Part shown: positions 1,908 through 50,518 of the stretch, in pieces | Layout of the letters: each line of letters starts with the position of its first letter | How positions within the stretch are numbered: the first letter of the stretch is position 1 | Origin: Schmidtea nova | Lineage: Eukaryota | Assembly: GCA_044892505.1 (NCBI GenBank) | Contig: CM097882.1 | Coordinates: 547,584,001-547,648,000 of the forward strand | DNA: 64,000 bases | Reading direction: 5' to 3' | Program-made: the position numbers and the translations under genes | The notes under the pieces: generated by a model | What the model was told of the DNA's origin: nothing | The model's input: only the letters and a program-made list of their open reading frames with translations | The model's database searches: none

Positions 1908-2895
1908 TGTTGAGGATACCTAAATTCAAAATAATATAATAAATAAACAAAATTACTTGGGGGAAAATTGTCATGGGGAATGACACGATGGATTGGAGCC
2001 TGGGAAAGAAAACGGAAGTAAAAAGGAATGAGAAATGAGAAGGGGAAACAAAAGAAAAGAAATCAGACAAGCAAAACGAAATAGAGGTCAGCACTAATTA
2101 ACTAGTGCAAATAGGAAGAAATTCTAAAGTTGGGAAAAACAAAAACAACAACAAGAATTTTATCTTGACAACCGGTCAGAGATAATGTGGGCAAAAAGCA
2201 AACAAGCCGAAGCGGCAAAAAGGAGAAAAACAGAGATTATCTTGACAGCTGTCAAAGATAATTCCGTTGCTGAGAAAATGAATGGAAAATCATGTTGGAG
2301 AAATGTAACAACAGCTGATAATTTCAAGTGCTACAAAGTGAAGAAGTATAAAAGGAGGAAGCACCTAAAAACAAACACAACATTGTATACAGAAGTGGTT
2401 AGAGAAAATATTTGAGAGAAAGCGTTTGAGAAAATAAAGCTAGTAAAATTCATTAAAAAGGAAGCAGAAAAACGTCCAGAGAAAGTTAAAGAAGAGTCAA
2501 AAGGAGAATCCAATAATTGAAACCAGAAACTAAGGGATAAGCAGCAGGAGCTTATTCAAGCGTTTGAGAAAATAAAGCTAGTAAAATTCAGAGAGTAAAT
2601 CCAAGTCAAATAAAGAAAACAACCAGTCAAATTACCAATTGTTATACTCCCCAGCAGTGAGTGATTTCGAACATCGATTATACACTAGTGCTATTCTTCA
2701 CTATAGTGTCGTAATAAGCACTGTATAATCAGCTGTAGTTTGAATTTGGTCAGTTCATTGTAAATCGAAGTTATTTGTGATAATCAATAAAATTTCCTGT
2801 TGTCAGTTGTTATTGTGGGTCAATAAAGAGCACGTTTTGGAGTCAGGGTAATAATTTGTTAATTATAAAGTCACCAACGACCCAATAACCCAACA
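1908..2895 (+). repeat. LTR1 (988 bp; lacks the 60-bp 5' duplication present in the other LTRs)
   Basis: TGTTG...CAACA termini; followed by the PBS; AATAAA motifs at ~2786 and 2822. Confidence 0.93.
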
Positions 2896-2900
2896 TTATT

Positions 2901-2918
2901 TGGTGAGCCCGACGTGAT
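2901..2918 (+). promoter_or_regulatory. Primer-binding site, tRNA-Trp type (also 18760-18777 and 34612-34629)
   Basis: TGGTGAGCCCGACGTGAT differs at one position from the ASLV tRNA-Trp PBS TGGTGACCCCGACGTGAT; it lies 5 nt after the LTR end. Confidence 0.8.
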
Positions 2919-3177
2919 CAAACGTTGGTGAGGAGCGATTGAAAAAGTAATTGGGATATATCCGGCGAAATAAAGTGGTGAAGAATTATTGAAATAAAAT
3001 TTATTGAAGAGATAGTGAAAATAATTGTGAGGAAAAGAAAATACTAAACAAAATTGTGAAAAGGTAAATTATTAATTGTTGTAATAAATTTGAATTTAGA
3101 TTTTGCGAAACTTGAGAAAATAATTTATTAAAGTGAGTCGATATAATTTACGAAGCAAAAGTAAAAAGGAACCCATA

Positions 3178-4270
3178 ATGAGTAGTGAAGATTTGCCAGT
3201 ATCAGTTATTAAAGAAAATAATGATTTTGCAAGTTGTCAAAGATTACCTGTGGAACAATATGGAGGAGATCCGGTTATTTTTGTAGATTTTATGAGTGAT
3301 TACTACATGTATGCAACGGCGTACGGATGGTCTCAAGCGATTATGATTCAGAGATTACCTTTATATCTTAAAGGAGCAGCTAGAGAGGTTTGGCAACAGA
3401 TTGATAAAAAATTAATTGGTAATGATTGGGCAAAGTTGAAAGATGCGTTAGCTGCAAAACTTATCGGAGGAGATATCAAAAGATTAATGCGTCAAAAGTT
3501 TTATAGTAGAGTTCAAAATCCAAATGAAACAGTGAGCGAATTTGCGTATCATTTGTCAACCCTCGCAAGTAAATCATTTGAAGAAGACTCAAAACAACCA
3601 GGCCTAGCCCAACAAATGCAAGAATTAATCCAAGACCAATTTTTGTCAGGAATAAACAAAGAAATAAAAACCGCATTATGCTGTGTAGATTATGATAATT
3701 TTGATGAACTAGTAAAAAAGGCAATGAAAATCGAATTGAATTTGAAGAGCACCAAAAACAAATCTGATGTGTTCGCGATTATTCCAGCTCAAAGGGAAAG
3801 ATCAATTACACCAACCCAAAACAATTGGGAGCCAGAAAATAGATTCCAGCGATCAAAAAGTCCATCACCCAAATGGAGAACCGAGTTAAATATAAATAGA
3901 CCAAGCCGTAATTTCCAAGGCGCTGAGAGATCCAGAGTGATCCAGTGTGAAAATTGCAAGAAGATTGGCCATTATGCAAACCAGTGTTGGTTCAAAAATA
4001 ATTCCGATAGTACACCCAGAAGAATAACCCAAGATTATCGTACAAACGATAGGGGAACCAATTTTCGGAGAACAGTTCCTGATATAAAATCCAATGTTAA
4101 TGAAGTGCAATGTTATCGCTGCGGTAGAAAAGGACATGTTTCCAGAAATTGTTTTTCAAGATCAAGATCACCCTCAACTTCACCTTCACCACAGAGAGAC
4201 AATGTAAATTTGAACGGACAAATTCAATGCCATTTGTGTAGAAATTATGGACATATTGCAAGATCCTGTC
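3178..4270 (+). other. gag: Gag: retrotransposon capsid-like domain plus three CCHC zinc knuckles
   Basis: RLPLYLKGAAREVW and QNPNETVSEFAYHL-type capsid motifs; CX2CX4HX4C at 3946-3987, 4111-4152 and 4228-4269. Confidence 0.9.
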
Positions 4271-7200
4271 CAAGAAATACGAATAAATTTCAAAGGCCAA
4301 TATTAAAGCGAACAATAAGATTTCAAGATGAAAATCCATCGAATGATAATATAGCCTATGTTCAGCAAGATGGTTTTAGAGAAAAGATCGAAAGCGATGT
4401 TAAACAATTGAACCAAAAACTGAATAAATTGATAGCCAAATTTGAATCGGATGAAGAAACAGATACCCACATGATGACGAGGAAAGAGTTGAGCGAAAGC
4501 GAGTCAGAATCAGATAAAGTACAAATCAATAAAGCTAAAGCCGACATACAAAGTGAAAGGAGCACTGTATTTATTGCCAAAATCAGAAAGTTAGTTGCGG
4601 AACCAGACGTAAATTCCCAGAAAATAACAGAATTATTTACGAGGCTAACTAAAATACCTTTAAGTCTGACAAAAATTAAAACTGTTATTAAACTTTGTGC
4701 AGAATGTTATGCAGCAAGTGTGGAAAAACGAGATGTATTCAAAGATTTTATGAGAATATTTGGGCAATATCTACGGAAAAATAAATGGTTAGATCCTATA
4801 TTTATCCAAATGAATGCTCCAGATGGTACAAAATCCAACTATAAAATCGATGCATACGAGAAAGTACGCGAGCTAAAAAGAGAAGTAATGCACAAGTGTG
4901 AAAGTTGGGCGGTGGAACTCAAATTTATGGATCAAGTATTAGAGGATGGCGAATTCTTGGTAGATTATGGATTAATTCCTGGCGGTGAAAATGAAATGCA
5001 AATGACGAATATGATCGCCAAGGAAAAAACAGTAACAAATGACTCTGACGAAATCAGATTTGAACTAATGGAAGCATTGCTTAAAGGAAACACAGGTGAC
5101 ATTATTGATAAATTAAACAATATTTTGAATTTAGAACTCAAAGTAGAAGACAAGTTAAAAATTCTAGACTGTGTTAGACCCTATATGAATGCGGAAAACG
5201 AATATGGTAAAACAATAAAAACTCTTATTCAAAAATTTGGTCAAGAATTCAGGGAAGAAGGGATTTATAATGAGCCATTCGTAGTACTGTTAAAAATAAA
5301 TGGTCAAGGAGTAGAATATACGGATGAACATTGGTATACGAAAGTGAATAAAATTCGTCGAAGAACAGCAGAAATCATGGGCAATGATGGAATAATTGTG
5401 CTAACGTATAAAGGTTTTGAGCTAGACGATGATGAATACTTATTTGATTGTGGATGTATGCCACGAAAGCGTAACGAAGATAGATTTCTTACGGATCAAA
5501 ATTTTATTAATGATATAATTGCAGTGAAACAAGTGGATACAGATGAAGTAGAAAAAGGTTATAAAATTGAATTACCAGAGTTCGGCAGTGAAACAATGGA
5601 TAATGAGGATGAAATATCAGAGGAACAAGAAATGACAGAACATGGAGAGGAACAGGAAACTGAGCAGAGAATTGAGGAAAGTATAATAAAAACGGAAGTT
5701 AAAAATGAAGCGTATATGACAGAAATGGAGATTGATAATATTACGGAGGAAAGACAACGCAAAGATTTATACGAGGTGAGATGTGAAATAATACAGAGAC
5801 TCCAAGGTGAGAGAGGTCAGAAGGAATTAAAAGAGACTGAAAAGGTTGTACGTGCGCTGGCAAATGAATTATATGGCGAAGCAGCAGAGAAAACACAAGT
5901 AGAATTATATGTGAGAAAAATTGCAAAAAAGTTGAAAAAGAGACTTTATGTGGTCTTGAGATATGTAAAAGACAACAAGGAATTCTGTGATGATGGAGTG
6001 ATAACCAATATGATGACAGGAGAAATGGATAGAGATTTAGTATTGACAATTACGAGTTATATTTTGTTAGAAATCGGGACACACGATTATTTAAATATGG
6101 AAAAACGAGATGAAGTAATCAAAAAGGCGAGCAAAGTATTGTATAAGCATGTGGGCAAATGGATAAAGGAAATTGGAGGCTGGGAGAAATTAGTTAAACA
6201 AAAAACAGAATCATCAGTCGAAAAGAGAGAAAGTTACGAAGGAATACCGAGAGGTAAACCTATGAAACTTCCATTTATAATGTTTATGATCATAATATTA
6301 TGTGCGATTACGACGCAAACAACATCTTTAATTGCGTACGATTGTTCTCAAACCAAAATGGGAAAGATTTATTCCATGGTGGACATGACAGAATGTTCTG
6401 ATGCACACCCAATGAGTTTAACAGTTGAAAATGATGTAAAGTATCATGTATACCAAGAATCAGGCTTTAGACATGCGGTAGTAAGAGAGTGCATTGTAAA
6501 GAGAACGAGCTTTGTGTTTTATTGTGGCAAATGGAGTCACACATCACTAATTAAAATGTATTCAATCCCAAGGCCAGTTGATGTAAACCCAGAAAATTGC
6601 ATGGCTGCGTTTCAAACAGGGGAAGTGAAAATTAGCCCCGAGGTTAAATTGAAAGCTAAATTAAATCATGCTATACGAGAAACAATTATCGAAAAAGGAA
6701 CAATAAAGGCTAATGGGGATTGTAAAGGAGAACCGTACAAAATGAATGGAGAAATTATTGATCAAATTGTTGTGATGGAAGAGTATTTGACGGAATTGAG
6801 AGAATTCCAAGGAGCTTTTGATGACGACACAGGCAAGTTACAAACGCATCCATTCTGCAATATGAAGCAGGCTAGCTGTCAAACAGGAGAATCAATTTTG
6901 GTGTACGAAGTTAAGACAAATCTATGTAATTTAATACATTTGAAAACAATGAGTTTTAATGAAATGAGTGGAGAACAGTTGAGAGAAAGACCGGAAAATT
7001 TGAATGTGGAGGCAAAACCGGACATGACAATCAGAATTACCCCATTGAGAACCAGAAAAACTCCAGTTGTTTTGATGTCAACTTTATTAGATGACGGTAT
7101 GAGATTTATTCGAAAAAATGTGGTAAATAAATGTGGTCAAACGGTGTATGAGACCAATTATAAAGGAATTTATGTATCCAAGAAAAGAGTCGAGGAAGCT

Positions 7201-10200
7201 CAAGTCCAAATACATAGTACGGATATCAAATTGACAAATTATTTTAATAACAAAATAGACTATTTGTTCCACTACAGTCAAAGTATTATGGAAAATATTT
7301 ATAGAGAAATGATATTAAACGATTGTAAGTTGAATAAAGAAATACTACGGAACAGAATGGCGATGGCAGTCACAAATCCAAACTTGGTAGCACCTATGTT
7401 AATATCAGAAAACGGTGTGTTTGCAAGAGTATTTGGAGAAGCATTGTATAGCTATAAATGCAACGAGATTCCCGTGCAAATTATAAAGTACGAGCAATGT
7501 ACCAATGAATTGCCAGTAAGTGTTAATGGTAAATTGAGATTCATGGAGCCAATAACTCGAATATTGTTGGAAGAAGACGCGAAACCTAAACTTTTAAAAT
7601 GTAACCGATTGCTCGCACCATTATATCGACTAACATCAGATTCGTGGATATCATTACCAGATCATAAAGGAGTAAGAAATCCAGAAAAATTAGAATTAAC
7701 AAAACTTGAATATTTAATAAATTTTACATCATTGGACAAATTAGCACAAACTGGGTTGTATTCTCAAGAAGATGTTGAAGAAGCCCGAAGAAATCTACTA
7801 TTTCCATCAAAGAAAGAACGAGTCATTACTGAAATGATTGATACTATATTACCAAGTGGTGAAGGCAAAGTAAATTATGATTATTTACTAACACCAGATC
7901 ATTATAAGAAAGCAACGTACAATACGATGAAAAAGATATGGGGGAAATTCATGTTTTTGGGACAAGCATGTGCAGGATTAATTGGAATTTATGTTATGTT
8001 CGTGGTGATTAAAGTGATAATATCTCAAATACTAACTACTCATCAGCTATATGTTATTTCGGGATGGTCCTGGAAACTGATTATCGGATGTATTCCATTT
8101 CTGGCAAGATTTGTAATTACAAAGCATCAATATAAAGAGATGGGGAAAGTCAAGTCACGACTAAATAATGACGGAAGAGACATTGATTCGAGTTCGGACA
8201 GCGAGAGTGGGAATGGGGGTAAAGTAAAAGTACCTCCAATATATTATTATAAAAACAGTAAAATTAAAATTAATGATATACGAGAAAAATCTAAATCTTT
8301 GAATTTATTACAATCGGTACCACAAACAAGTGAAACAGACACATTCAGTCGATTATGCATTCCAAAAACTTTTCTACCAACAGCACCAATATATCCAGTA
8401 GAGAAGTTAAAAGAAATGAGACCAGTTGAAAACATTGAATTGACAAATGAGCAAATCGCACCAACTAGTGCGGAAATTGAAAGGAGAAACATGCTGGGAT
8501 TACCAGGAAATTATGCATTAATGACAATTGGAAACAAAGGAAGACAGCCAAGAATATGGATACAAGTGAATAAACATAGAGTCGAAGCATTAATAGATTC
8601 AGGCTCAAGCAATACAATATTATCAGATAAATTAATCAATTCAGGGGAAAGAGCACGAATGAAAAGCACAGAAGAAGTTGTACGATCAATGACGAAAAAT
8701 AAATTAAATATCATTGGACAGATCAGAGTAAAACTCAATATTGGAAATAAAGAAATTGTTCATAATGCGCTAATAATGAAAGATAGCCCAGTAATGTGTT
8801 TGGTAGAGATGGATGTGTTGGAGCAATTGGAAGGAGTCTCTCTTGATTTGAAAACCGGAAATCTAATTGTAGGAAAAACAGGAAAAGTTATTCATGAAAC
8901 GGGAGATGTGTTTCTAAATCAAACGTTAAGAGTACCACCTCAGAGTGAAGTTATTTGTTATGTGAATACAATGGGAGTTCCAGACGATGAATTTATATTT
9001 CAACCAAGTGAGAATTTAATTGCCAAATATGATACTCCAATATGCGACGAAGTAGTGAAAGTTCAAGATCAATTAATTCCTGTTCGCATCACTAACAATA
9101 GCGACAAAGAAGTGTCATTTAAACCAAAAACGAAATTAGGAAAGCTAACAAAAATCCTAAAAATCAATAATAAAAGATTACCAAAAAATATTAAAATATA
9201 CAAAGAACCCCAAGTTGACAGTGCAGAGTTGACGCAAGAGCAAACACAAACATTTACAAAATTGTTGAGAAAATATCAAGATATTTTTGCGAAACATGAG
9301 TATGATTTGGGAGTAACTCATATAATTGAACATGAAATTCCATTAATTGATGAAACTCCAATTAAATTACGACCATACAGAATTCCGTATGCGCATCAAG
9401 ACGAAAGCGATAGACAAATAAAGGCTATGAAAGAATTCCATATTATTAGAGACAGTTTTTCACCATTTTCTTCCTCTATTGTTGTAGTCAAAAAGAAAGA
9501 CGGTGAACTGAGATTTTGTATTGACTATCGAAAACTGAATCAAGTGACAAGAAAGGATACGTATCCCATTCCGGTTCCTCAGGAAATGTTTGACAAAATG
9601 GGAGAAGCTCAATATTTTACTGTTATTGATTTAAACAAAGGCTACAATCAATTCAAAGTTAAAGAGACAGATAAAGGGAAAACAGCGTTTTCAGATGGAA
9701 AAGGTTTGTATGAATTTAATGTTTTACCATTTGGTTTAACAGGTGCACCAGCGACATTTCAAAGAGGAATGAATTTTGTGCTGCGAGACATTCCACACGC
9801 CTTGGTATATATTGATGATATTATAATCTTCTCAGGTAATTTCGAAGAGCACATGAGAGATGTGGAAACAGTATTTAAACGGCTCAGAGAAGCAAATCTC
9901 AAAATTAAACCATCAAAATGTGAATGGGGAAAGTCAGAGGTAGTGTATGTTGGACATATTATTTCACGAAAAGGTCTACAACCAAATCCAGAAAATGTTA
10001 AGAAAATTAAAGATTATCCAACTCCAAAAAATGTTGATGATATTAGACAATTTCTCGGGTTAGCAAGCTATTATAGAAAATTTATTAGAAACTTTGCACA
10101 TGTTGCTCAACCATTAACGATGCTATTAAAGAAAACCACAAAATTCGTGTGGGGCAAAGCTCAGCAGGATATTTTCGAAATACTCAAACAAAAGTTAATG

Positions 10201-12822: not shown

Positions 12823-12959
12823 TAAGCTACTATTTTGCATGTAATGACAATATACAGTATTATTTCCCTTATATTTCCTTAGTTAATGATTCTTTAATAG
12901 TCAATTGATAATCTTTTGTTGTAAAATATGTTGTTAAAATTTAAATTATATTGATGTAA

Positions 12960-13035
12960 TTTGATTGGTCGAATAATCACACTGTAGGGGGAGAGAATTT
13001 TTGGATATAAAGATGGCGGTTGTTTTCAGAGTTTG
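12960..13035 (+). promoter_or_regulatory. Putative internal promoter for ORF2
   Basis: ATTGG (reverse CCAAT) at 12964, TATAAA at 13006 and YY1-like AAGATGGCGG at 13010, ~90 bp upstream of ATG 13100. Motif inference only. Confidence 0.45.
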
Positions 13036-13099
13036 ACTTGGAAAATCTTTGGAAAAAAAAAAAAAAAAAAAAAAGATCAAAATTAAATCTAAAGGAAGA

Positions 13100-14320
13100 A
13101 TGGAAAAAATCAACAGACCAGCAAGATTATACGGGAAATATTATCAAGAAAGAAGAAGCTATACAGACAAAGTTATCGTAATAGAAGAAAATTTGAAAAT
13201 TCCTAATTGGGTAAGGTTAGGGAATGAAGAAATGAGAATATGTATGGTGGAATTGGAATGGAAATCCAATACGAAATTTTCAGAAGTGTTAATAAGAAGA
13301 AACGAAGAGACATGGGAGGTTCATGTTTTTAAAGGAAGAGTAGAAATTTTAGAGAATGATGCAACGGTTCTACAAACATTGGAAACTAATTCATCATGGA
13401 AGATATCAAAAGAAATATGGCATAAGAAGATGCGAGCAGCCAATGGAACGGCTTGCATTGTTTTAGAATGCCGAGGACCAGCTCCAACAATCCCGGCATT
13501 AGAACAAATTATGACCAATGAAGAAGAAAATAGGTTACTCCCGATAACCGAAGAAATGTTAAAGCACCGAAAATCATTTTTGAGAAAACAAATGACAAAA
13601 GAAGAAATTAGAAAAAATATTATGTTCATGGACGCGGAATATGGCGTAAGTGAGCAAAACAAGATGGTTCCGCTGTCTATTTGTTTAATAAACTATGACG
13701 GAAGAATATTGTATAACTCATTAATAACCCCCAGAGAAAAGCTAAAAAATTACGTTACCCAAATTCACGGCATCACAGAGAAGATGTCAAGAAATCAAGA
13801 TGATCAATACAAGAGTCAGAGGAAAATTCAGCAATTAACGGCAAGGAAAATCTTGATTGGACATGATCTCCAAAGCGAACTATTGTACAGTGGAGTACAG
13901 ACAAGGGATCTATGGGGTATTCGCGATTTGGCGGCAGCTCGAGCATTGACAAAAAGAAGAGTCACAAGGAACGGGCAATGGTATAAATTGTCAATAGTAG
14001 CCGAAGAAATATGTGGCATCAGAATGCAAAAAGGGAATCATACGGCATTAGAAGACACTGATGCAATTAGAAGAATTTATTTGGCCATAGAAAATGAATG
14101 GCAGGATGATGTAGAGTGTGCTGAAACAACCAGCAAAAGAAAATATTCGTTAGAAGAGTATAGGAAAAGAAAGGCTCCAACAACCAGTGAGCAGATGGAG
14201 GAACCAAAAGAGAAGAGGAAAGCAGAAGTTCAGCAAATGGAACAAGACATTCACATGGTGGAACACATGCATATTGCTCGTAAGAAAACTGCGAAAATGA
14301 TGGTTGAGAAAAAAACTTGA
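13100..14320 (+). CDS. ORF2 copy 1 (406 aa): cupin-like N-terminal domain plus DEDDh 3'-5' exonuclease (ISG20/REXO4-like)
   Basis: ExoI FMDAEYG (13631/13637), NYVTQIHGIT, ExoII LIGHDLQSEL, IRDLA, ExoIII HTALED (14039/14054); identical protein in all three copies. Confidence 0.85.
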   Translation: MEKINRPARLYGKYYQERRSYTDKVIVIEENLKIPNWVRLGNEEMRICMVELEWKSNTKFSEVLIRRNEETWEVHVFKGRVEILENDATVLQTLETNSSWKISKEIWHKKMRAANGTACIVLECRGPAPTIPALEQIMTNEEENRLLPITEEMLKHRKSFLRKQMTKEEIRKNIMFMDAEYGVSEQNKMVPLSICLINYDGRILYNSLITPREKLKNYVTQIHGITEKMSRNQDDQYKSQRKIQQLTARKILIGHDLQSELLYSGVQTRDLWGIRDLAAARALTKRRVTRNGQWYKLSIVAEEICGIRMQKGNHTALEDTDAIRRIYLAIENEWQDDVECAETTSKRKYSLEEYRKRKAPTTSEQMEEPKEKRKAEVQQMEQDIHMVEHMHIARKKTAKMMVEKKT

Positions 14321-14516
14321 TTTATTTAAAAATGCAATTGTGGAAATGGACAAAATAATGATGCAACAAAATAGTGTTGAAAAAGGAAATCAAACAAAAG
14401 AAGGAATAGTGGTCGATAAGATGATCACGTTCAATGGTGAGGAATTGGAAGCAACAAAGGTTGTCGTCACGTATAGAGGAAGAAACCAAACTATCAAAAT
14501 TGTAATTGATAAATAG
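14304..14516 (+). CDS. Probable C-terminal continuation of ORF2 in the +1 frame (also 30162-30374 and 46012-46224)
   Basis: Overlaps the ORF2 stop at an A7 run (14309-14315); removing one A fuses the two frames. Confidence 0.5.
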   Translation: MRKKLDLFKNAIVEMDKIMMQQNSVEKGNQTKEGIVVDKMITFNGEELEATKVVVTYRGRNQTIKIVIDK

Positions 14517-17706: not shown

Positions 17707-18754
17707 TGTTGAGGATACCTAAATTCAAAATAATATAATAAATAAACAAAATTACTTAGGGGAATTACTTGAGGATACCTAAATTCAAAATAATATAATA
17801 AATAAACAAAATTACTTGGGGGAAAATTGTCATGGGGAATGACACGATGGATTGGAGCCTGGGAAAGAAAACGGAAGTAAAAAGGAATGAGAAATGAGAA
17901 GGGGAAACAAAAGAAAAGAAATCAGACAAGCAAAACGAAATAGAGGTCAGCACTAATTAACTAGTGCAAATAGGAAGAAATTCTAAAGTTGGGAAAAACA
18001 AAAACAACAACAAGAATTTTATCTTGACAACCGGTCAGAGATAATGTGGGCAAAAAGCAAACAAGCCGAAGCGGCAAAAAGGAGAAAAACAGAGATTATC
18101 TTGACAGCTGTCAAAGATAATTCCGTTGCTGAGAAAATGAATGGAAAATCATGTTGGAGAAATGTAACAACAGCTGATAATTTCAAGTGCTACAAAGTGA
18201 AGAAGTATAAAAGGAGGAAGCACCTAAAAACAAACATAACATTGTATACAGAAGTGGTTAGAGAAAATATTTGAGAGAAAGCGTTTGAGAAAATAAAGCT
18301 AGTAAAATTCATTAAAAAGGAAGCAGAAAAACGTCCAGAGAAAGTTAAAGAAGAGTCAAAAGGAGAATCCAATAATTGAAACCAGAAACTAAGGGATAAG
18401 CAGCAGGAGCTTATTCAAGCGTTTGAGAAAATAAAGCTAGTAAAATTCAGAGAGTAAATCCAAGTCAAATAAAGAAAACAACCAGTCAAATTACCAATTG
18501 TTATACTCCCCAGCAGTGAGTGATTTCGAACATCGATTATACACTAGTGCTATTCTTCACTATAGTGTCGTAATAAGCACTGTATAATCAGCTGTAGTTT
18601 GAATTTGGTCAGTTCATTGTAAATCGAAGTTATTTGTGATAATCAATAAAATTTCCTGTTGTCAGTTGTTATTGTGGGTCAATAAAGAGCACGTTTTGGA
18701 GTCAGGGTAATAATTTGTTAATTATAAAGTCACCAACGACCCAATAACCCAACA
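17707..18754 (+). repeat. LTR2 (1048 bp, shared by copies 1 and 2)
   Basis: PPT upstream and PBS downstream; 60-bp duplication at the 5' end; private C>T at 18237. Confidence 0.93.
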
Positions 18755-19036: not shown

Positions 19037-22000
19037 ATGAGTAGTGAAGATTTGCCAGTATCAGTTATTAAAGAAAATAATGATTTTGCAAGTTGTCAAA
19101 GATTACCTGTGGAACAATATGGAGGAGATCCGGTTATTTTTGTAGATTTTATGAGTGATTACTACATGTATGCAACGGCGTACGGATGGTCTCAAGCGAT
19201 TATGATTCAGAGATTACCTTTATATCTTAAAGGAGCAGCTAGAGAGGTTTGGCAACAGATTGATAAAAAATTAATTGGTAATGATTGGGCAAAGTTGAAA
19301 GATGCGTTAGCTGCAAAACTTATCGGAGGAGATATCAAAAGATTAATGCGTCAAAAGTTTTATAGTAGAGTTCAAAATCCAAATGAAACAGTGAGCGAAT
19401 TTGCGTATCATTTGTCAACCCTCGCAAGTAAATCATTTGAAGAAGACTCAAAACAACCAGGCCTAGCCCAACAAATGCAAGAATTAATCCAAGACCAATT
19501 TTTGTCAGGAATAAACAAAGAAATAAAAACCGCATTATGCTGTGTAGATTATGATAATTTTGATGAACTAGTAAAAAAGGCAATGAAAATCGAATTGAAT
19601 TTGAAGAGCACCAAAAACAAATCTGATGTGTTCGCGATTATTCCAGCTCAAAGGGAAAGATCAATTACACCAACCCAAAACAATTGGGAGCCAGAAAATA
19701 GATTCCAGCGATCAAAAAGTCCATCACCCAAATGGAGAACCGAGTTAAATATAAATAGACCAAGCCGTAATTTCCAAGGCGCTGAGAGATCCAGAGTGAT
19801 CCAGTGTGAAAATTGCAAGAAGATTGGCCATTATGCAAACCAGTGTTGGTTCAAAAATAATTCCGATAGTACACCCAGAAGAATAACCCAAGATTATCGT
19901 ACAAACGATAGGGGAACCAATTTTCGGAGAACAGTTCCTGATATAAAATCCAATGTTAATGAAGTGCAATGTTATCGCTGCGGTAGAAAAGGACATGTTT
20001 CCAGAAATTGTTTTTCAAGATCAAGATCACCCTCAACTTCACCTTCACCACAGAGAGACAATGTAAATTTGAACGGACAAATTCAATGCCATTTGTGTAG
20101 AAATTATGGACATATTGCAAGATCCTGTCCAAGAAATACGAATAAATTTCAAAGGCCAATATTAAAGCGAACAATAAGATTTCAAGATGAAAATCCATCG
20201 AATGATAATATAGCCTATGTTCAGCAAGATGGTTTTAGAGAAAAGATCGAAAGCGATGTTAAACAATTGAACCAAAAACTGAATAAATTGATAGCCAAAT
20301 TTGAATCGGATGAAGAAACAGATACCCACATGATGACGAGGAAAGAGTTGAGCGAAAGCGAGTCAGAATCAGATAAAGTACAAATCAATAAAGCTAAAGC
20401 CGACATACAAAGTGAAAGGAGCACTGTATTTATTGCCAAAATCAGAAAGTTAGTTGCGGAACCAGACGTAAATTCCCAGAAAATAACAGAATTATTTACG
20501 AGGCTAACTAAAATACCTTTAAGTCTGACAAAAATTAAAACTGTTATTAAACTTTGTGCAGAATGTTATGCAGCAAGTGTGGAAAAACGAGATGTATTCA
20601 AAGATTTTATGAGAATATTTGGGCAATATCTACGGAAAAATAAATGGTTAGATCCTATATTTATCCAAATGAATGCTCCAGATGGTACAAAATCCAACTA
20701 TAAAATCGATGCATACGAGAAAGTACGCGAGCTAAAAAGAGAAGTAATGCACAAGTGTGAAAGTTGGGCGGTGGAACTCAAATTTATGGATCAAGTATTA
20801 GAGGATGGCGAATTCTTGGTAGATTATGGATTAATTCCTGGCGGTGAAAATGAAATGCAAATGACGAATATGATCGCCAAGGAAAAAACAGTAACAAATG
20901 ACTCTGACGAAATCAGATTTGAACTAATGGAAGCATTGCTTAAAGGAAACACAGGTGACATTATTGATAAATTAAACAATATTTTGAATTTAGAACTCAA
21001 AGTAGAAGACAAGTTAAAAATTCTAGACTGTGTTAGACCCTATATGAATGCGGAAAACGAATATGGTAAAACAATAAAAACTCTTATTCAAAAATTTGGT
21101 CAAGAATTCAGGGAAGAAGGGATTTATAATGAGCCATTCGTAGTACTGTTAAAAATAAATGGTCAAGGAGTAGAATATACGGATGAACATTGGTATACGA
21201 AAGTGAATAAAATTCGTCGAAGAACAGCAGAAATCATGGGCAATGATGGAATAATTGTGCTAACGTATAAAGGTTTTGAGCTAGACGATGATGAATACTT
21301 ATTTGATTGTGGATGTATGCCACGAAAGCGTAACGAAGATAGATTTCTTACGGATCAAAATTTTATTAATGATATAATTGCAGTGAAACAAGTGGATACA
21401 GATGAAGTAGAAAAAGGTTATAAAATTGAATTACCAGAGTTCGGCAGTGAAACAATGGATAATGAGGATGAAATATCAGAGGAACAAGAAATGACAGAAC
21501 ATGGAGAGGAACAGGAAACTGAGCAGAGAATTGAGGAAAGTATAATAAAAACGGAAGTTAAAAATGAAGCGTATATGACAGAAATGGAGATTGATAATAT
21601 TACGGAGGAAAGACAACGCAAAGATTTATACGAGGTGAGATGTGAAATAATACAGAGACTCCAAGGTGAGAGAGGTCAGAAGGAATTAAAAGAGACTGAA
21701 AAGGTTGTACGTGCGCTGGCAAATGAATTATATGGCGAAGCAGCAGAGAAAACACAAGTAGAATTATATGTGAGAAAAATTGCAAAAAAGTTGAAAAAGA
21801 GACTTTATGTGGTCTTGAGATATGTAAAAGACAACAAGGAATTCTGTGATGATGGAGTGATAACCAATATGATGACAGGAGAAATGGATAGAGATTTAGT
21901 ATTGACAATTACGAGTTATATTTTGTTAGAAATCGGGACACACGATTATTTAAATATGGAAAAACGAGATGAAGTAATCAAAAAGGCGAGCAAAGTATTG

Positions 22001-25000
22001 TATAAGCATGTGGGCAAATGGATAAAGGAAATTGGAGGCTGGGAGAAATTAGTTAAACAAAAAACAGAATCATCAGTCGAAAAGAGAGAAAGTTACGAAG
22101 GAATACCGAGAGGTAAACCTATGAAACTTCCATTTATAATGTTTATGATCATAATATTATGTGCGATTACGACGCAAACAACATCTTTAATTGCGTACGA
22201 TTGTTCTCAAACCAAAATGGGAAAGATTTATTCCATGGTGGACATGACAGAATGTTCTGATGCACACCCAATGAGTTTAACAGTTGAAAATGATGTAAAG
22301 TATCATGTATACCAAGAATCAGGCTTTAGACATGCGGTAGTAAGAGAGTGCATTGTAAAGAGAACGAGCTTTGTGTTTTATTGTGGCAAATGGAGTCACA
22401 CATCACTAATTAAAATGTATTCAATCCCAAGGCCAGTTGATGTAAACCCAGAAAATTGCATGGCTGCGTTTCAAACAGGGGAAGTGAAAATTAGCCCCGA
22501 GGTTAAATTGAAAGCTAAATTAAATCATGCTATACGAGAAACAATTATCGAAAAAGGAACAATAAAGGCTAATGGGGATTGTAAAGGAGAACCGTACAAA
22601 ATGAATGGAGAAATTATTGATCAAATTGTTGTGATGGAAGAGTATTTGACGGAATTGAGAGAATTCCAAGGAGCTTTTGATGACGACACAGGCAAGTTAC
22701 AAACGCATCCATTCTGCAATATGAAGCAGGCTAGCTGTCAAACAGGAGAATCAATTTTGGTGTACGAAGTTAAGACAAATCTATGTAATTTAATACATTT
22801 GAAAACAATGAGTTTTAATGAAATGAGTGGAGAACAGTTGAGAGAAAGACCGGAAAATTTGAATGTGGAGGCAAAACCGGACATGACAATCAGAATTACC
22901 CCATTGAGAACCAGAAAAACTCCAGTTGTTTTGATGTCAACTTTATTAGATGACGGTATGAGATTTATTCGAAAAAATGTGGTAAATAAATGTGGTCAAA
23001 CGGTGTATGAGACCAATTATAAAGGAATTTATGTATCCAAGAAAAGAGTCGAGGAAGCTCAAGTCCAAATACATAGTACGGATATCAAATTGACAAATTA
23101 TTTTAATAACAAAATAGACTATTTGTTCCACTACAGTCAAAGTATTATGGAAAATATTTATAGAGAAATGATATTAAACGATTGTAAGTTGAATAAAGAA
23201 ATACTACGGAACAGAATGGCGATGGCAGTCACAAATCCAAACTTGGTAGCACCTATGTTAATATCAGAAAACGGTGTGTTTGCAAGAGTATTTGGAGAAG
23301 CATTGTATAGCTATAAATGCAACGAGATTCCCGTGCAAATTATAAAGTACGAGCAATGTACCAATGAATTGCCAGTAAGTGTTAATGGTAAATTGAGATT
23401 CATGGAGCCAATAACTCGAATATTGTTGGAAGAAGACGCGAAACCTAAACTTTTAAAATGTAACCGATTGCTCGCACCATTATATCGACTAACATCAGAT
23501 TCGTGGATATCATTACCAGATCATAAAGGAGTAAGAAATCCAGAAAAATTAGAATTAACAAAACTTGAATATTTAATAAATTTTACATCATTGGACAAAT
23601 TAGCACAAACTGGGTTGTATTCTCAAGAAGATGTTGAAGAAGCCCGAAGAAATCTACTATTTCCATCAAAGAAAGAACGAGTCATTACTGAAATGATTGA
23701 TACTATATTACCAAGTGGTGAAGGCAAAGTAAATTATGATTATTTACTAACACCAGATCATTATAAGAAAGCAACGTACAATACGATGAAAAAGATATGG
23801 GGGAAATTCATGTTTTTGGGACAAGCATGTGCAGGATTAATTGGAATTTATGTTATGTTCGTGGTGATTAAAGTGATAATATCTCAAATACTAACTACTC
23901 ATCAGCTATATGTTATTTCGGGATGGTCCTGGAAACTGATTATCGGATGTATTCCATTTCTGGCAAGATTTGTAATTACAAAGCATCAATATAAAGAGAT
24001 GGGGAAAGTCAAGTCACGACTAAATAATGACGGAAGAGACATTGATTCGAGTTCGGACAGCGAGAGTGGGAATGGGGGTAAAGTAAAAGTACCTCCAATA
24101 TATTATTATAAAAACAGTAAAATTAAAATTAATGATATACGAGAAAAATCTAAATCTTTGAATTTATTACAATCGGTACCACAAACAAGTGAAACAGACA
24201 CATTCAGTCGATTATGCATTCCAAAAACTTTTCTACCAACAGCACCAATATATCCAGTAGAGAAGTTAAAAGAAATGAGACCAGTTGAAAACATTGAATT
24301 GACAAATGAGCAAATCGCACCAACTAGTGCGGAAATTGAAAGGAGAAACATGCTGGGATTACCAGGAAATTATGCATTAATGACAATTGGAAACAAAGGA
24401 AGACAGCCAAGAATATGGATACAAGTGAATAAACATAGAGTCGAAGCATTAATAGATTCAGGCTCAAGCAATACAATATTATCAGATAAATTAATCAATT
24501 CAGGGGAAAGAGCACGAATGAAAAGCACAGAAGAAGTTGTACGATCAATGACGAAAAATAAATTAAATATCATTGGACAGATCAGAGTAAAACTCAATAT
24601 TGGAAATAAAGAAATTGTTCATAATGCGCTAATAATGAAAGATAGCCCAGTAATGTGTTTGGTAGGGATGGATGTGTTGGAGCAATTGGAAGGAGTCTCT
24701 CTTGATTTGAAAACCGGAAATCTAATTGTAGGAAAAACAGGAAAAGTTATTCATGAAACGGGAGATGTGTTTCTAAATCAAACGTTAAGAGTACCACCTC
24801 AGAGTGAAGTTATTTGTTATGTGAATACAATGGGAGTTCCAGACGATGAATTTATATTTCAACCAAGTGAGAATTTAATTGCCAAATATGATACTCCAAT
24901 ATGCGACGAAGTAGTAAAGTTCAAGATCAATTAATTCCTGTTCGCATCACTAACAATAGCGACAAAGAAGTGTCATTTAAACCAAAAACGAAATTAGGAA

Positions 25001-33558: not shown

Positions 33559-34606
33559 TGTTGAGGATACCTAAATTCAAAATAATATAATAAATAAACA
33601 AAATTACTTAGGGGAATTACTTGAGGATACCTAAATTCAAAATAATATAATAAATAAACAAAATTACTTGGGGGAAAATTGTCATGGGGAATGACACGAT
33701 GGATTGGAGCCTGGGAAAGAAAACGGAAGTAAAAAGGAATGAGAAATGAGAAGGGGAAACAAAAGAAAAGAAATCAGACAAGCAAAACGAAATAGAGGTC
33801 AGCACTAATTAACTAGTGCAAATAGGAAGAAATTCTAAAGTTGGGAAAAACAAAAACAACAACAAGAATTTTATCTTGACAACCGGTCAGAGATAATGTG
33901 GGCAAAAAGCAAACAAGCCGAAGCGGCAAAAAGGAGAAAAACAGAGATTATCTTGACAGCTGTCAAAGATAATTCCGTTGCTGAGAAAATGAATGGAAAA
34001 TCATGTTGGAGAAATGTAACAACAGCTGATAATTTCAAGTGCTACAAAGTGAAGAAGTATAAAAGGAGGAAGCACCTAAAAACAAACACAACATTGTATA
34101 CAGAAGTGGTTAGAGAAAATATTTGAGAGAAAGCGTTTGAGAAAATAAAGCTAGTAAAATTCATTAAAAAGGAAGCAGAAAAACGTCCAGAGAAAGTTAA
34201 AGAAGAGTCAAAAGGAGAATCCAATAATTGAAACCAGAAACTAAGGGATAAGCAGCAGGAGCTTATTCAAGCGTTTGAGAAAATAAAGCTAGTAAAATTC
34301 AGAGAGTAAATCCAAGTCAAATAAAGAAAACAACCAGTCAAATTACCAATTGTTATACTCCCCAGCAGTGAGTGATTTCGAACATCGATTATACACTAGT
34401 GCTATTCTTCACTATAGTGTCGTAATAAGCACTGTATAATCAGCTGTAGTTTGAATTTGGTCAGTTCATTGTAAATCGAAGTTATTTGTGATAATCAATA
34501 AAATTTCCTGTTGTCAGTTGTTATTGTGGGTCAATAAAGAGCACGTTTTGGAGTCAGGGTAATAATTTGTTAATTATAAAGTCACCAACGACCCAATAAC
34601 CCAACA
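33559..34606 (+). repeat. LTR3 (1048 bp, shared by copies 2 and 3)
   Basis: PPT upstream, PBS downstream and TGTTG...CAACA termini. Confidence 0.93.
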
Positions 34607-34888: not shown

Positions 34889-37800
34889 ATGAGTAGTGAA
34901 GATTTGCCAGTATCAGTTATTAAAGAAAATAATGATTTTGCAAGTTGTCAAAAATTACCTGTGGAACAATATGGAGGAGATCCGGTTATTTTTGTAGATT
35001 TTATGAGTGATTACTACATGTATGCAACGGCGTACGGATGGTCTCAAGCGATTATGATTCAGTGATTACCTTTATATCTTAAAGGAGCAGCTAGAGAGGT
35101 TTGGCAACAGATTGATAAAAAATTAATTGGTAATGATTGGGCAAAGTTGAAAGATGCGTTAGCTGCAAAACTTATCGGAGGAGATATCAAAAAATTAATG
35201 CGTCAAAAGTTTTATAGTAGAGTTCAAAATCCAAATGAAACAGTGAGCGAATTTGCGTATCATTTGTCAACCCTCGCAAGTAAATCATTTGAAGAAGACT
35301 CAAAACAACCAGGCCTAGCCCAACAAATGCAAGAATTAATCCAAGACCAATTTTTGTCAGGAATAAACAAAGAAATAAAAACCGCATTATGCTGTGTAGA
35401 TTATGATAATTTTGATGAACTAGTAAAAAAGGCAATGAAAATCGAATTGAATTTGAAGAGCACCAAAAACAAATCTGATGTGTTCGCGATTATTCCAGCT
35501 CAAAGGGAAAGATCAATTACACCAACCCAAAACAATTGGGAGCCAGAAAATAGATTCCAGCGATCAAAAAGTCCATCACCCAAATGGAGAACCGAGTTAA
35601 ATATAAATAGACCAAGCCGTAATTTCCAAGGCGCTGAGAGATCCAGAGTGATCCAGTGTGAAAATTGCAAGAAGATTGGCCATTATGCAAACCAGTGTTG
35701 GTTCAAAAATAATTCCGATAGTACACCCAGAAGAATAACCCAAGATTATCGCACAAACGATAGGGGAACCAATTTTCGGAGAACAGTTCCTGATATAAAA
35801 TCCAATGTTAATGAAGTGCAATGTTATCGCTGCGGTAGAAAAGGACATGTTTCCAGAAATTGTTTTTCAAGATCAAGATCACCCTCAACTTCACCTTCAC
35901 CACAGAGAGACAATGTAAATTTGAACGGACAAATTCAATGCCATTTGTGTAGAAATTATGGACATATTGCAAGATCCTGTCCAAGAAATACGAATAAATT
36001 TCAAAGGCCAATATTAAAGCGAACAATAAGATTTCAAGATGAAAATCCATCGAATGATAATATAGCCTATGTTCAGCAAGATGGTTTTAGAGAAAAGATC
36101 GAAAGCGATGTTAAACAATTGAACCAAAAACTGAATAAATTGATAGCCAAATTTGAATCGGATGAAGAAACAGATACCCACATGATGACGAGGAAAGAGT
36201 TGAGCGAAAGCGAGTCAGAATCAGATAAAGTACAAATCAATAAAGCTAAAGCCGACATACAAAGTGAAAGGAGCACTGTATTTATTGCCAAAATCAGAAA
36301 GTTAGTTGCGGAACCAGACGTAAATTCCCAGAAAATAACAGAATTATTTACGAGGCTAACTAAAATACCTTTAAGTCTGACAAAAATTAAAACTGTTATT
36401 AAACTTTGTGCAGAATGTTATGCAGCAAGTGTGGAAAAACGAGATGTATTCAAAGATTTTATGAGAATATTTGGGCAATATCTACGGAAAAATAAATGGT
36501 TAGATCCTATATTTATCCAAATGAATGCTCCAGATGGTACAAAATCCAACTATAAAATCGATGCATACGAGAAAGTACGCGAGCTAAAAAGAGAAGTAAT
36601 GCACAAGTGTGAAAGTTGGGCGGTGGAACTCAAATTTATGGATCAAGTATTAGAGGATGGCGAATTCTTGGTAGATTATGGATTAATTCCTGGCGGTGAA
36701 AATGAAATGCAAATGACGAATATGATCGCCAAGGAAAAAACAGTAACAAATGACTCTGACGAAATCAGATTTGAACTAATGGAAGCATTGCTTAAAGGAA
36801 ACACAGGTGACATTATTGATAAATTAAACAATATTTTGAATTTAGAACTCAAAGTAGAAGACAAGTTAAAAATTCTAGACTGTGTTAGACCCTATATGAA
36901 TGCGGAAAACGAATATGGTAAAACAATAAAAACTCTTATTCAAAAATTTGGTCAAGAATTCAGGGAAGAAGGGATTTATAATGAGCCATTCGTAGTACTG
37001 TTAAAAATAAATGGTCAAGGAGTAGAATATACGGATGAACATTGGTATACGAAAGTGAATAAAATTCGTCGAAGAACAGCAGAAATCATGGGCAATGATG
37101 GAATAATTGTGCTAACGTATAAAGGTTTTGAGCTAGACGATGATGAATACTTATTTGATTGTGGATGTATGCCACGAAAGCGTAACGAAGATAGATTTCT
37201 TACGGATCAAAATTTTATTAATGATATAATTGCAGTGAAACAAGTGGATACAGATGAAGTAGAAAAAGGTTATAAAATTGAATTACCAGAGTTCGGCAGT
37301 GAAACAATGGATAATGAGGATGAAATATCAGAGGAACAAGAAATGACAGAACATGGAGAGGAACAGGAAACTGAGCAGAGAATTGAGGAAAGTATAATAA
37401 AAACGGAAGTTAAAAATGAAGCGTATATGACAGAAATGGAGATTGATAATATTACGGAGGAAAGACAACGCAAAGATTTATACGAGGTGAGATGTGAAAT
37501 AATACAGAGACTCCAAGGTGAGAGAGGTCAGAAGGAATTAAAAGAGACTGAAAAGGTTGTACGTGCGCTGGCAAATGAATTATATGGCGAAGCAGCAGAG
37601 AAAACACAAGTAGAATTATATGTGAGAAAAATTGCAAAAAAGTTGAAAAAGAGACTTTATGTGGTCTTGAGATATGTAAAAGACAACAAGGAATTCTGTG
37701 ATGATGGAGTGATAACCAATATGATGACAGGAGAAATGGATAGAGATTTAGTATTGACAATTACGAGTTATATTTTGTTAGAAATCGGGACACACGATTA

Positions 37801-40800
37801 TTTAAATATGGAAAAACGAGATGAAGTAATCAAAAAGGCGAGCAAAGTATTGTATAAGCATGTGGGCAAATGGATAAAGGAAATTGGAGGCTGGGAGAAA
37901 TTAGTTAAACAAAAAACAGAATCATCAGTCGAAAAGAGAGAAAGTTACGAAGGAATACCGAGAGGTAAACCTATGAAACTTCCATTTATAATGTTTATGA
38001 TCATAATATTATGTGCGATTACGACGCAAACAACATCTTTAATTGCGTACGATTGTTCTCAAACCAAAATGGGAAAGATTTATTCCATGGTGGACATGAC
38101 AGAATGTTCTGATGCACACCCAATGAGTTTAACAGTTGAAAATGATGTAAAGTATCATGTATACCAAGAATCAGGCTTTAGACATGCGGTAGTAAGAGAG
38201 TGCATTGTAAAGAGAACGAGCTTTGTGTTTTATTGTGGCAAATGGAGTCACACATCACTAATTAAAATGTATTCAATCCCAAGGCCAGTTGATGTAAACC
38301 CAGAAAATTGCATGGCTGCGTTTCAAACAGGGGAAGTGAAAATTAGCCCCGAGGTTAAATTGAAAGCTAAATTAAATCATGCTATACGAGAAACAATTAT
38401 CGAAAAAGGAACAATAAAGGCTAATGGGGATTGTAAAGGAGAACCGTACAAAATGAATGGAGAAATTATTGATCAAATTGTTGTGATGGAAGAGTATTTG
38501 ACGGAATTGAGAGAATTCCAAGGAGCTTTTGATGACGACACAGGCAAGTTACAAACGCATCCATTCTGCAATATGAAGCAGGCTAGCTGTCAAACAGGAG
38601 AATCAATTTTGGTGTACGAAGTTAAGACAAATCTATGTAATTTAATACATTTGAAAACAATGAGTTTTAATGAAATGAGTGGAGAACAGTTGAGAGAAAG
38701 ACCGGAAAATTTGAATGTGGAGGCAAAACCGGACATGACAATCAGAATTACCCCATTGAGAACCAGAAAAACTCCAGTTGTTTTGATGTCAACTTTATTA
38801 GATGACGGTATGAGATTTATTCGAAAAAATGTGGTAAATAAATGTGGTCAAACGGTGTATGAGACCAATTATAAAGGAATTTATGTATCCAAGAAAAGAG
38901 TCGAGGAAGCTCAAGTCCAAATACATAGTACGGATATCAAATTGACAAATTATTTTAATAACAAAATAGACTATTTGTTCCACTACAGTCAAAGTATTAT
39001 GGAAAATATTTATAGAGAAATGATATTAAACGATTGTAAGTTGAATAAAGAAATACTACGGAACAGAATGGCGATGGCAGTCACAAATCCAAACTTGGTA
39101 GCACCTATGTTAATATCAGAAAACGGTGTGTTTGCAAGAGTATTTGGAGAAGCATTGTATAGCTATAAATGCAACGAGATTCCCGTGCAAATTATAAAGT
39201 ACGAGCAATGTACCAATGAATTGCCAGTAAGTGTTAATGGTAAATTGAGATTCATGGAGCCAATAACTCGAATATTGTTGGAAGAAGACGCGAAACCTAA
39301 ACTTTTAAAATGTAACCGATTGCTCGCACCATTATATCGACTAACATCAGATTCGTGGATATCATTACCAGATCATAAAGGAGTAAGAAATCCAGAAAAA
39401 TTAGAATTAACAAAACTTGAATATTTAATAAATTTTACATCATTGGACAAATTAGCACAAACTGGGTTGTATTCTCAAGAAGATGTTGAAGAAGCCCGAA
39501 GAAATCTACTATTTCCATCAAAGAAAGAACGAGTCATTACTGAAATGATTGATACTATATTACCAAGTGGTGAAGGCAAAGTAAATTATGATTATTTACT
39601 AACACCAGATCATTATAAGAAAGCAACGTACAATACGATGAAAAAGATATGGGGGAAATTCATGTTTTTGGGACAAGCATGTGCAGGATTAATTGGAATT
39701 TATGTTATGTTCGTGGTGATTAAAGTGATAATATCTCAAATACTAACTACTCATCAGCTATATGTTATTTCGGGATGGTCCTGGAAACTGATTATCGGAT
39801 GTATTCCATTTCTGGCAAGATTTGTAATTACAAAGCATCAATATAAAGAGATGGGGAAAGTCAAGTCACGACTAAATAATGACGGAAGAGACATTGATTC
39901 GAGTTCGGACAGCGAGAGTGGGAATGGGGGTAAAGTAAAAGTACCTCCAATATATTATTATAAAAACAGTAAAATTAAAATTAATGATATACGAGAAAAA
40001 TCTAAATCTTTGAATTTATTACAATCGGTACCACAAACAAGTGAAACAGACACATTCAGTCGATTATGCATTCCAAAAACTTTTCTACCAACAGCACCAA
40101 TATATCCAGTAGAGAAGTTAAAAGAAATGAGACCAGTTGAAAACATTGAATTGACAAATGAGCAAATCGCACCAACTAGTGCGGAAATTGAAAGGAGAAA
40201 CATGCTGGGATTACCAGGAAATTATGCATTAATGACAATTGGAAACAAAGGAAGACAGCCAAGAATATGGATACAAGTGAATAAACATAGAGTCGAAGCA
40301 TTAATAGATTCAGGCTCAAGCAATACAATATTATCAGATAAATTAATCAATTCAGGGGAAAGAGCACGAATGAAAAGCACAGAAGAAGTTGTACGATCAA
40401 TGACGAAAAATAAATTAAATATCATTGGACAGATCAGAGTAAAACTCAATATTGGAAATAAAGAAATTGTTCATAATGCGCTAATAATGAAAGATAGCCC
40501 AGTAATGTGTTTGGTAGGGATGGATGTGTTGGAGCAATTGGAAGGAGTCTCTCTTGATTTGAAAACCGGAAATCTAATTGTAGGAAAAACAGGAAAAGTT
40601 ATTCATGAAACGGGAGATGTGTTTCTAAATCAAACGTTAAGAGTACCACCTCAGAGTGAAGTTATTTGTTATGTGAATACAATGGGAGTTCCAGACGATG
40701 AATTTATATTTCAACCAAGTGAGAATTTAATTGCCAAATATGATACTCCAATATGCGACGAAGTAGTAAAGTTCAAGATCAATTAATTCCTGTTCGCATC

Positions 40801-49470: not shown

Positions 49471-50518
49471 TGTTGAGGATACCTAAATTCAAAATAATAT
49501 AATAAATAAACAAAATTACTTAGGGGAATTACTTGAGGATACCTAAATTCAAAATAATATAATAAATAAACAAAATTACTTGGGGGAAAATTGTCATGGG
49601 GAATGACACGATGGATTGGAGCCTGGGAAAGAAAACGGAAGTAAAAAGGAATGAGAAATGAGAAGGGGAAACAAAAGAAAAGAAATCAGACAAGCAAAAC
49701 GAAATAGAGGTCAGCACTAATTAACTAGTGCAAATAGGAAGAAATTCTAAAGTTGGGAAAAACAAAAACAACAACAAGAATTTTATCTTGACAACCGGTC
49801 AGAGATAATGTGGGCAAAAAGCAAACAAGCCGAAGCGGCAAAAAGGAGAAAAACAGAGATTATCTTGACAGCTGTCAAAGATAATTCCGTTGCTGAGAAA
49901 ATGAATGGAAAATCATGTTGGAGAAATGTAACAACAGCTGATAATTTCAAGTGCTACAAAGTGAAGAAGTATAAAAGGAGGAAGCACCTAAAAACAAACA
50001 CAACATTGTATACAGAAGTGGTTAGAGAAAATATTTGAGAGAAAGCGTTTGAGAAAATAAAGCTAGTAAAATTCATTAAAAAGGAAGCAGAAAAACGTCC
50101 AGAGAAAGTTAAAGAAGAGTCAAAAGGAGAATCCAATAATTGAAACCAGAAACTAAGGGATAAGCAGCAGGAGCTTATTCAAGCGTTTGAGAAAATAAAG
50201 CTAGTAAAATTCAGAGAGTAAATCCAAGTCAAATAAAGAAAACAACCAGTCAAATTACCAATTGTTATACTCCCCAGCAGTGAGTGATTTCGAACATCGA
50301 TTATACACTAGTGCTATTCTTCACTATAGTGTCGTAATAAGCACTGTATAATCAGCTGTAGTTTGAATTTGGTCAGTTCATTGTAAATCGAAGTTATTTG
50401 TGATAATCAATAAAATTTCCTGTTGTCAGTTGTTATTGTGGGTCAATAAAGAGCACGTTTTGGAGTCAGGGTAATAATTTGTTAATTATAAAGTCACCAA
50501 CGACCCAATAACCCAACA
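49471..50518 (+). repeat. LTR4, terminal 3' LTR (1048 bp)
   Basis: PPT upstream; followed by ATAT and unique flank rather than a PBS. Confidence 0.93.

Follow-up and report, generated by a model that had tools for sequence, protein, structure and literature searches.

The first open reading frame (ORF1) of a young LTR element of Schmidtea nova encodes, in frame before Env, a domain that we accept, on the basis of a structural model and a family profile, as having a real Bcl-2 fold. The explanation that we favour, tentatively and at somewhat less than an even chance, is that the signal peptide of Env would likely stay as an ER anchor and that the domain probably damps death or defence signalling of the host outside the canonical BH3 groove.

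The window, i.e. the whole stretch of 64,000 nucleotides analysed, contains three tandem copies of the element (1908-50518) which share four LTRs, are >99.9% identical and are enclosed by a single ATAT duplication (Table 1). At their 5' ends, LTR2, LTR3 and LTR4 have 60 bp in duplicate, unlike LTR1. The first copy (1908-18754) has a size of 16.8 kb; its primer-binding site presumably resembles tRNA-Trp. ORF1 is ordered Gag, two UBLs, acidic linker, Bcl-2, signal, Env, PR, RT, RNase H, integrase and a second signal-like segment, and Pfam matched, in this order, three CCHC knuckles, a Monjiviricetes/chuvirus-type fusion protein, protease, RT, RNase H and integrase. ORF1 is broken downstream of Env by one frameshift in copy 2 and by two in copy 3. 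In a genome search, in which 150 of 2,183 candidates were scored, 17 of the 150 were located in open frames of 3,232 codons like that of the window, and sister families of the element had 36-39% identity. The element is a young, multi-copy, compact Ty3/gypsy element with a Gag-UBLx2-Bcl-2-Env-Pol ORF. Two UBL copies were found in five of the other polyproteins and one in three; in the window, a helical unit of ~75 aa precedes each UBL (about 4560-4790 and 5050-5270), so that the repeat comprises helical domain plus UBL, and this unit recalls, by eye only, the TFIIS N-terminal domain. In the end of ORF1 (12028-12822), an unknown domain lies between the second signal-like segment and a hydrophobic run at the C terminus. 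The same arrangement was found in 9 of 9 polyproteins (sister ends compared: L022, L024, L026, L057, L059, L065, L103 and L135), and the module is predicted to be a second type I membrane protein; it measures about 260 aa in the window versus about 400 aa in the closest sisters. In five sister elements, ORF2 had no Pfam match. The element sits directly after a frame of 312 codons (412-1843) that resembles, by eye, the C-terminal portion of a DNA polymerase of family B; Pfam returned only DUF2719 (E 0.02) for this frame, and it is preceded by TTTGGCGCGAAAA and ATGACTCATCG repeats.

Table 1 Features of the element and of related sequences. Coordinates are positions in the window unless a locus or contig is given.
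Feature	Position	Strand	Basis or remark
5' LTR (LTR1)	1908..2895	+	TG...CA; ATAT target-site duplication shared with the LTR4 end
Primer-binding site	2901-2918	+	directly 3' of the 5' LTR
ORF1, 3,214 aa	3178..12822	+	Ty3/gypsy LTR element; Pfam domains, hydropathy
Gag CCHC knuckles, three	3946-4269	+	Pfam
UBL domain 1	4795..5019	+	PF00240 E 0.0017, below cut-off; Atlas leads 0.80-0.82, weak (sub-0.9)
UBL domain 2, repeat of domain 1	5272..5496	+	phmmer UBL1 vs UBL2, E 0.005-0.011
Bcl-2-fold domain (predicted), ORF1 aa 878-1009	5809..6204	+	AF2 model, structural alignment, profile match
VVRALANELY, helix 1 / BH4 position	5845..5874	+	model residues 29-38
VRKIAKKL, putative BH3 position, helix 2	5911..5934	+	model helix H49-69; register by eye
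Degenerate BH1, MTGEMDRDLV	6013..6042	+	HMMER alignment to Bcl-xL; NWGR reads DRDL
BH2 motif, HVGKWIKEIGGW	6148..6183	+	in frame in ORF1; Pfam, profile, column counts
Predicted internal Env signal peptide	6250..6327	+	n-region 6250-6267, h-region 6268-6309, c-region 6310-6327
Env ectodomain and TM helix, HSV-gB/chuvirus-type	6328..8022 (TM 7966-8022)	+	PF24664 E 5e-88; hydropathy
PR	8590	+	ORF1, Pfam
RT YIDD	9808	+	ORF1
Second signal-like segment after integrase	12028-12081	+	within ORF1
ORF2, RNase T-type (DEDD) exonuclease	13037..14320	+	PF00929 E 2.2e-6, over cut-off
LTR2	17707..18754	+	common to tandem copies 1 and 2; polypurine tract before LTR2
Second copy of the Bcl-2/signal stretch downstream of the UBLs (5761..6330)	21620..22189	+	0 mismatches
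LTR3	33559..34606	+	
Third copy of the Bcl-2/signal stretch (5761..6330)	37472..38041	+	0 mismatches
LTR4	49471..50518	+	3' end of the three-copy array
piggyBac-like transposase fragment	53452-54216		PF13843 E 3e-36
BH3-only-like motif	L064:3879-3930, L056/L058 equivalents	+	
BIR/TRAF/ankyrin LTR element	C1:552695350-552720348 (L082-L084); also L087-L090		

The domain of the window, taken alone, matched the Pfam Bcl-2 profile (PF00452) with an E of 0.063 and 14.3 bits, where the gathering score is 31.4 bits, and phmmer against PDB sequences gave no match at E<=10. A single-sequence AF2 model had a pLDDT of 60 and was not Bcl-2-like; its best VIA row was an unrelated lyase (Z 8.7) and Foldseek gave only E>=0.5. 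This model was replaced by one based on an alignment (A3) of 37 element-only rows, 36 from the same genome plus P0001, from which cellular Bcl-2 proteins were excluded; the rows stem from about nine families and are not independent. The AF2 model from A3 reached a pLDDT of 81 and a pTM of 0.76 and has the hydrophobic helix 5 at the centre of its helical bundle. In a VIA-align comparison with 48,161 chains, Bcl-2-fold proteins were the top 36 of the best 50 rows, led by Bfl-1/A1 (Z 13.1, rmsd 2.9, 129 residues aligned), and the first unrelated row had a Z of 4.7. BH3-binding folds were closest (Bfl-1, trBcl-2L2, KsBcl-2, CNP058 and A179L; Z 11.6-13.1), versus Z 6.2-8.6 for A52, B14 and A46. Every row listed by Foldseek for the PDB belonged to the Bcl-2 family, albeit with a best E of 8.5e-3, and nothing was found at E<=0.001 in PDB or BFVD (best in BFVD 0.04). 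A profile of 17 element domains (A2) aligned to helices 4-8 of Bcl-xL with an E of 3.6e-9, all 60 rows shown being Bcl-2 family; PF00452 matched at E<=1 in 17 of the 17 members, and the sister domains L051 and L058 passed its cut-off (35.1 and 32.1 bits). In the Pfam check suggested with the original prediction, the window domain thus scored below the cut-off and these sisters above it, and the structural check returned a Bcl-2 bundle. The fold is therefore accepted on the family profile and the alignment-based model and not on the window domain alone, and the fold step of the favoured explanation draws in addition on the Foldseek ranking and the two sister scores. Searching the genome with the Pfam Bcl-2 profile, 33 of 150 scored matches exceeded the cut-off, host genes among them, and matches were also located inside frames of 3,068 and 3,073 codons with the same Gag-UBL-Bcl-2-Env-Pol layout. 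An Atlas search with the domain gave no usable match, and large protein searches gave none at E<=1 and none with A2; further large protein searches retrieved, one, four Env-side fragments and, another, a single representative, P0001. P0001 comes from an ENA contig outside the host genome and has the same Bcl-2-signal-Env junction.

All residues quoted in the original prediction are in frame in ORF1. In its BH2 motif, W, G and W have each been retained in 35 of the 37 aligned rows. The pattern W[IVLM]xxxGGW, chosen after the fact, arose in 1 of 20,000 shuffles of ORF1; a chance resemblance was rejected. The divergence claimed for BH1 was found as well: MTGEMDRDLV aligns to BH1 of Bcl-xL, with DRDL in place of NWGR. 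Across the 37 rows the Gly column of BH1 reads D in 19, E in 17 and G in one, i.e. it is acidic in 36 of 37, and the Arg is kept in three; one sister family keeps N-x-D-R, with the W in one copy, and one sister copy reads LFRTGINWDRVV at this position. The assignment of VVRALANEL to BH3, on the other hand, had to be given up. Residues 22-149 of the model align to Bcl-xL 1-197, and the aligned ranges put residues 17-38 on helix 1, so that the motif sits in the first helix, over the N-terminal helix of solved Bcl-2 proteins, which is the position of BH4 and not of BH3. Since the order of motifs is BH4, BH3, BH1, BH2 (PMC8998228), the BH3 position is probably the next helix with VRKIAKKL, which is without the Gly-Asp of the canonical L-x3-G/A-D; the Asp column is filled in 5 of 37 rows, with an uncertain register in distant families. 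Just before helix 1, two distant families have a BH3-only-like motif (AEKLREIASEM / AERLREIANQ, without Asp) that is absent in the family of the window.

Because of the acidic Gly column, canonical BH3 capture by the domain appears doubtful, and the canonical block of apoptosis that had been proposed is weakened; together with the loss of the Arg, this column leads us to the non-canonical reading of the groove. According to PMC8998228, a protein that has lost the BH1 Gly is unlikely to have a functional BH3 groove. Poxviral DPV022, however, has no recognisable BH motifs and yet binds Bak, Bax and Bim (PMC11209288), so that a degenerate BH1 does not exclude binding in the groove. We weighed the alternative of a genuine Bcl-2 of the viral type: with the Env signal as its tail anchor, the domain would capture the BH3 helices of host Bak/Bax in a remodelled groove and would block mitochondrial apoptosis in the cells in which the element is expressed. 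Besides DPV022 and the sister family with N-x-D-R, the BH3-binding nature of the closest VIA folds, candidate Bak-like exons in the host and the report that planarian apoptosis proceeds via Bak/Bcl-2 and cytochrome c (PMC8998228) speak for it. We nevertheless consider it unlikely, since the Gly is acidic throughout the lineage and 34 of 37 rows have lost the Arg, since helix 2 and BH1 are, by a count by eye, ~7 residues closer together than in Bcl-xL, and since the signal, once cleaved, would be located in the ER and no basic C-terminal flank follows it in the window. A complex prediction with a host Bak-like BH3 segment, in which the alignment was unused, scored 0.00 and has no bearing either way.

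The hydrophobic stretch behind BH2 was found as described in the original prediction: LPFIMFMIIILCAI begins 28 residues after GGW and 24 after EKLV (6268-6309). By motif rules and hydropathy, its surroundings were called as a signal peptide, and the nine polyproteins, from seven families, all have 2-5 K/R, an apolar run of 14-19 residues, small residues at -3/-1 (T/S in five, G/A in two, V/S and S/G in one each) and xxAYDC. The PF24664 Env profile begins at this segment (profile positions 4-111 in the window). The position of a Bcl-2-type tail anchor holds a hydrophobic run with features of a signal peptide that descends with env. Both its role as Env signal peptide, from motif, profile position and co-descent with env, and a Gag-UBL-Bcl-2 product directly upstream of Env, from Pfam order and alignment within one ORF, are predicted as originally proposed. 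By analogy, the cleaved signal would likely be retained as ER anchor on Gag-UBL-Bcl-2, as the rubella capsid keeps the E2 signal peptide as membrane anchor (PMC3040668). The apolar run (KD19 2.02; Env TM 2.52) is, however, of little length for an anchor that should be stable.

A signal that serves Env alone, be it by an own Met, by a spliced RNA or by a trimmed signal with a protease-released, soluble UBL-Bcl-2, is in our estimate quite unlikely; if it were true, the adjacency of Bcl-2 and the hydrophobic stretch would say nothing on anchoring. Two pieces of background fit such a separation: the env of Drosophila gypsy is spliced, and signal-peptide peptidase could trim the signal, as it does in HCV core. 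Moreover, 4 of 9 polyproteins have an in-frame Met 21-22 residues upstream of the predicted cut (22 in the window), exactly where a stand-alone Env would start, so that Env could be initiated separately; the signal co-segregates with env and not with Bcl-2, and the linker from BH2 to the apolar run varies from 20 to 44 residues. Against this, all nine polyproteins are encoded by an uninterrupted ORF, one of them has no Met between BH2 and the cut, in linker or signal (its sibling has only one, at -50), and the full-length Gag-Pol product must traverse the signal segment. The second signal-plus-TM module after the integrase, present in all nine, suggests that internal signals are routine in these proteins. 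The four contig sets of one study cover all 30 bins and no env splice joint is among the joints listed, which is uninformative on splicing.

A comparison of two sister polyproteins separates the history of the domain from that of the signal. In L021/L022 versus L023/L024, 5-23 of every 90 nt differ over aa 451-1020, the part with both UBLs and Bcl-2 (dS 0.43-0.60), compared to 0-5 in the gag region before and 0-4 in the linker, signal and Env after it (to aa 1500), with a dS of 0.03-0.05; the switch is located just behind BH2. From this one pair, we take the UBL-Bcl-2 block to be a cassette that was exchanged by recombination and has its end directly after BH2. Since the hydrophobic stretch tracks env in this pair, we regard it as being, by origin, the signal of Env; a captured Bcl-2 tail is not supported, as the stretch evolves and recombines with env. 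In the Bcl-2 core, nine pairs were analysed: dN/dS was 0.20 in the most informative one (Sd 31, Nd 34), 0.08, 0.23, 0.23 and 0.38 in four others and 1.13 in one with Sd 1 and Nd 4, and three pairs were saturated or undefined. The domain of the window is 18-33% identical to those of six other families, whereas RT keeps 53-88%. This divergence and the loss of the BH1 and BH3 signatures would fit a decaying relic of an old capture, kept by its in-frame position between gag and env, but this is very improbable and largely refuted by a dN/dS of about 0.2, the conserved W/G/W of BH2, one invariant Tyr, the confidently folded model and the presence of the domain in every family examined and in P0001. 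The Bcl-2 and RT trees share a deep split (100/100), consistent with a single old capture of the domain. In a 20-row tree, element domains are apart from 10 host genes with a branch support of only 78/79, and the nearest host genes (L042/L044, Bok-like by eye) are unsupported at 68/87; because these supports are too low, no donor gene is named.

The host has about ten Bcl-2-family loci (L041-L049, L052, L148 and L155:5395-5577), several of them with a degenerate BH1 (WSRV, WSKV, WENV), and a Bak-like BH3 exon is located ~11 kb upstream of L045. Further, an abundant LTR element with LTRs of 4.4-5.4 kb encodes, in separate ORFs, a protease with ankyrin repeats, a RING-zf-MATH TRAF-like protein and a BIR protein; of 150 scored BIR matches most are in 399-aa frames, and the three ORFs scanned gave no RT match. 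We count this element in favour of the host-conflict reading. A giant Bcl-2-bearing Burro was sought via the BIR matches, but the two regions examined had no A2 match.

The layout itself is known, and its novelty had been overstated. Section 7 of PMC6431247 describes Burro-1 to -4 / GYPSM1 (Jurka 2007; Grohme 2018) as giant gypsy-like planarian elements in which Ubi/SUMO, BCL2 and env lie in frame between gag and pol, and proposes that they interfere with apoptosis. Like Burro, the element of the window has one ORF with Gag-CCHC, Ubi/SUMO-like (the UBL match is below the Pfam cut-off), BCL2-like, in-frame mononegavirus-like env and PR-RT-RH-IN (PMC6431247). Unlike Burro (>30 kb, 4,873 aa; PMC6431247), it has 16.8 kb and 3,214 aa, no MATH/TRAF, BIR or ankyrin Pfam match at E<=1 in ORF1 or ORF2, but two UBLs, an exonuclease ORF2 and a second membrane module after the integrase; for the dUTPase-like domain that HHpred places between PR and RT in Burro, there was no Pfam match. 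Since the domain order agrees and the size and the MATH/BIR/ankyrin content do not, the element is, by its sequence, Burro-like rather than Burro. It also resembles GAG-ENV-POL errantiviruses of the HSV/gB type in its Ty3/gypsy Pol, a gB-type Env between gag and pol, LTRs and many near-identical copies. Six such elements of similar size, with an identical order of ORFs and the same type of Env, are described from S. mediterranea (Smed_errantivirus_1-6; PMC13524379), and 71 of the first 100 aligned residues of Env match Smed_errantivirus_1 (by eye). The main text of PMC13524379 gave no match for 'bcl', 'apopto', 'ubiquitin' or 'accessory', and the text available of PMC8532177 and PMC13238120 added nothing on the domain. 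Viral Bcl-2 proteins (KsBcl-2, CNP058, A179L, M11L and DPV022; A52, B14 and N1 of the signalling type) share the helical bundle and degenerate BH motifs, but large DNA viruses encode them as separate genes, and many have a tail of their own, whereas here the domain is part of the polyprotein of a reverse-transcribing element. In rubella virus, too, the signal of the next glycoprotein comes after a product that contains the capsid, retention being demonstrated there and inferred here; the rubella capsid reaches mitochondria and blocks Bax, and its anti-death role is exerted via an arginine-rich motif and not via a Bcl-2 domain (PMC3040668). A literature search for the anchor idea or later work yielded nothing further. 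To the layout reported in 2018-2019 from motif searches, the present analysis adds a check of the fold by structure, a BH1 that is acidic throughout the lineage, a correction of which helix is which and evidence for recombination of the UBL-Bcl-2 block as one unit, apart from the Env signal; these were not found in the literature searched, and Grohme 2018 may bear on them.

The favoured explanation starts from a single ORF with its domain order, a conserved BH2 and an acidic motif instead of the NWGR of BH1 across the lineage, and from the predicted Bcl-2 fold. The ribosome would make Gag-UBL-Bcl-2 in the cytosol, and the hydrophobic stretch would then enter the membrane in the manner of an internal signal; signal peptidase would cut before LIAYDC, Env would enter the lumen and Pol would be back in the cytosol after the Env TM. 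The retained signal would then tether Gag-UBL-Bcl-2 to the ER beside Env, and this tether would also bring capsids to the budding membrane. UBL-Bcl-2 may be a host-conflict cassette that is kept by selection, recombined and evolving much faster than RT or Env. In its widest form, which is speculative and on balance rather unlikely, these elements would be endogenous enveloped retroviruses whose Gag, ER-tethered via the retained Env signal, displays a groove-dead Bcl-2 fold and UBL repeats as a swappable, fast-evolving antagonist of cell-death or innate signalling in planarians. If true, this would be a retroelement counterpart of the poxviral Bcl-2-like immune modulators, combined with an anchored capsid of the rubella type. 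The compact, young and multi-copy family offers a tractable test of whether retroelements manipulate host cell death, in an animal that depends on stem-cell turnover.
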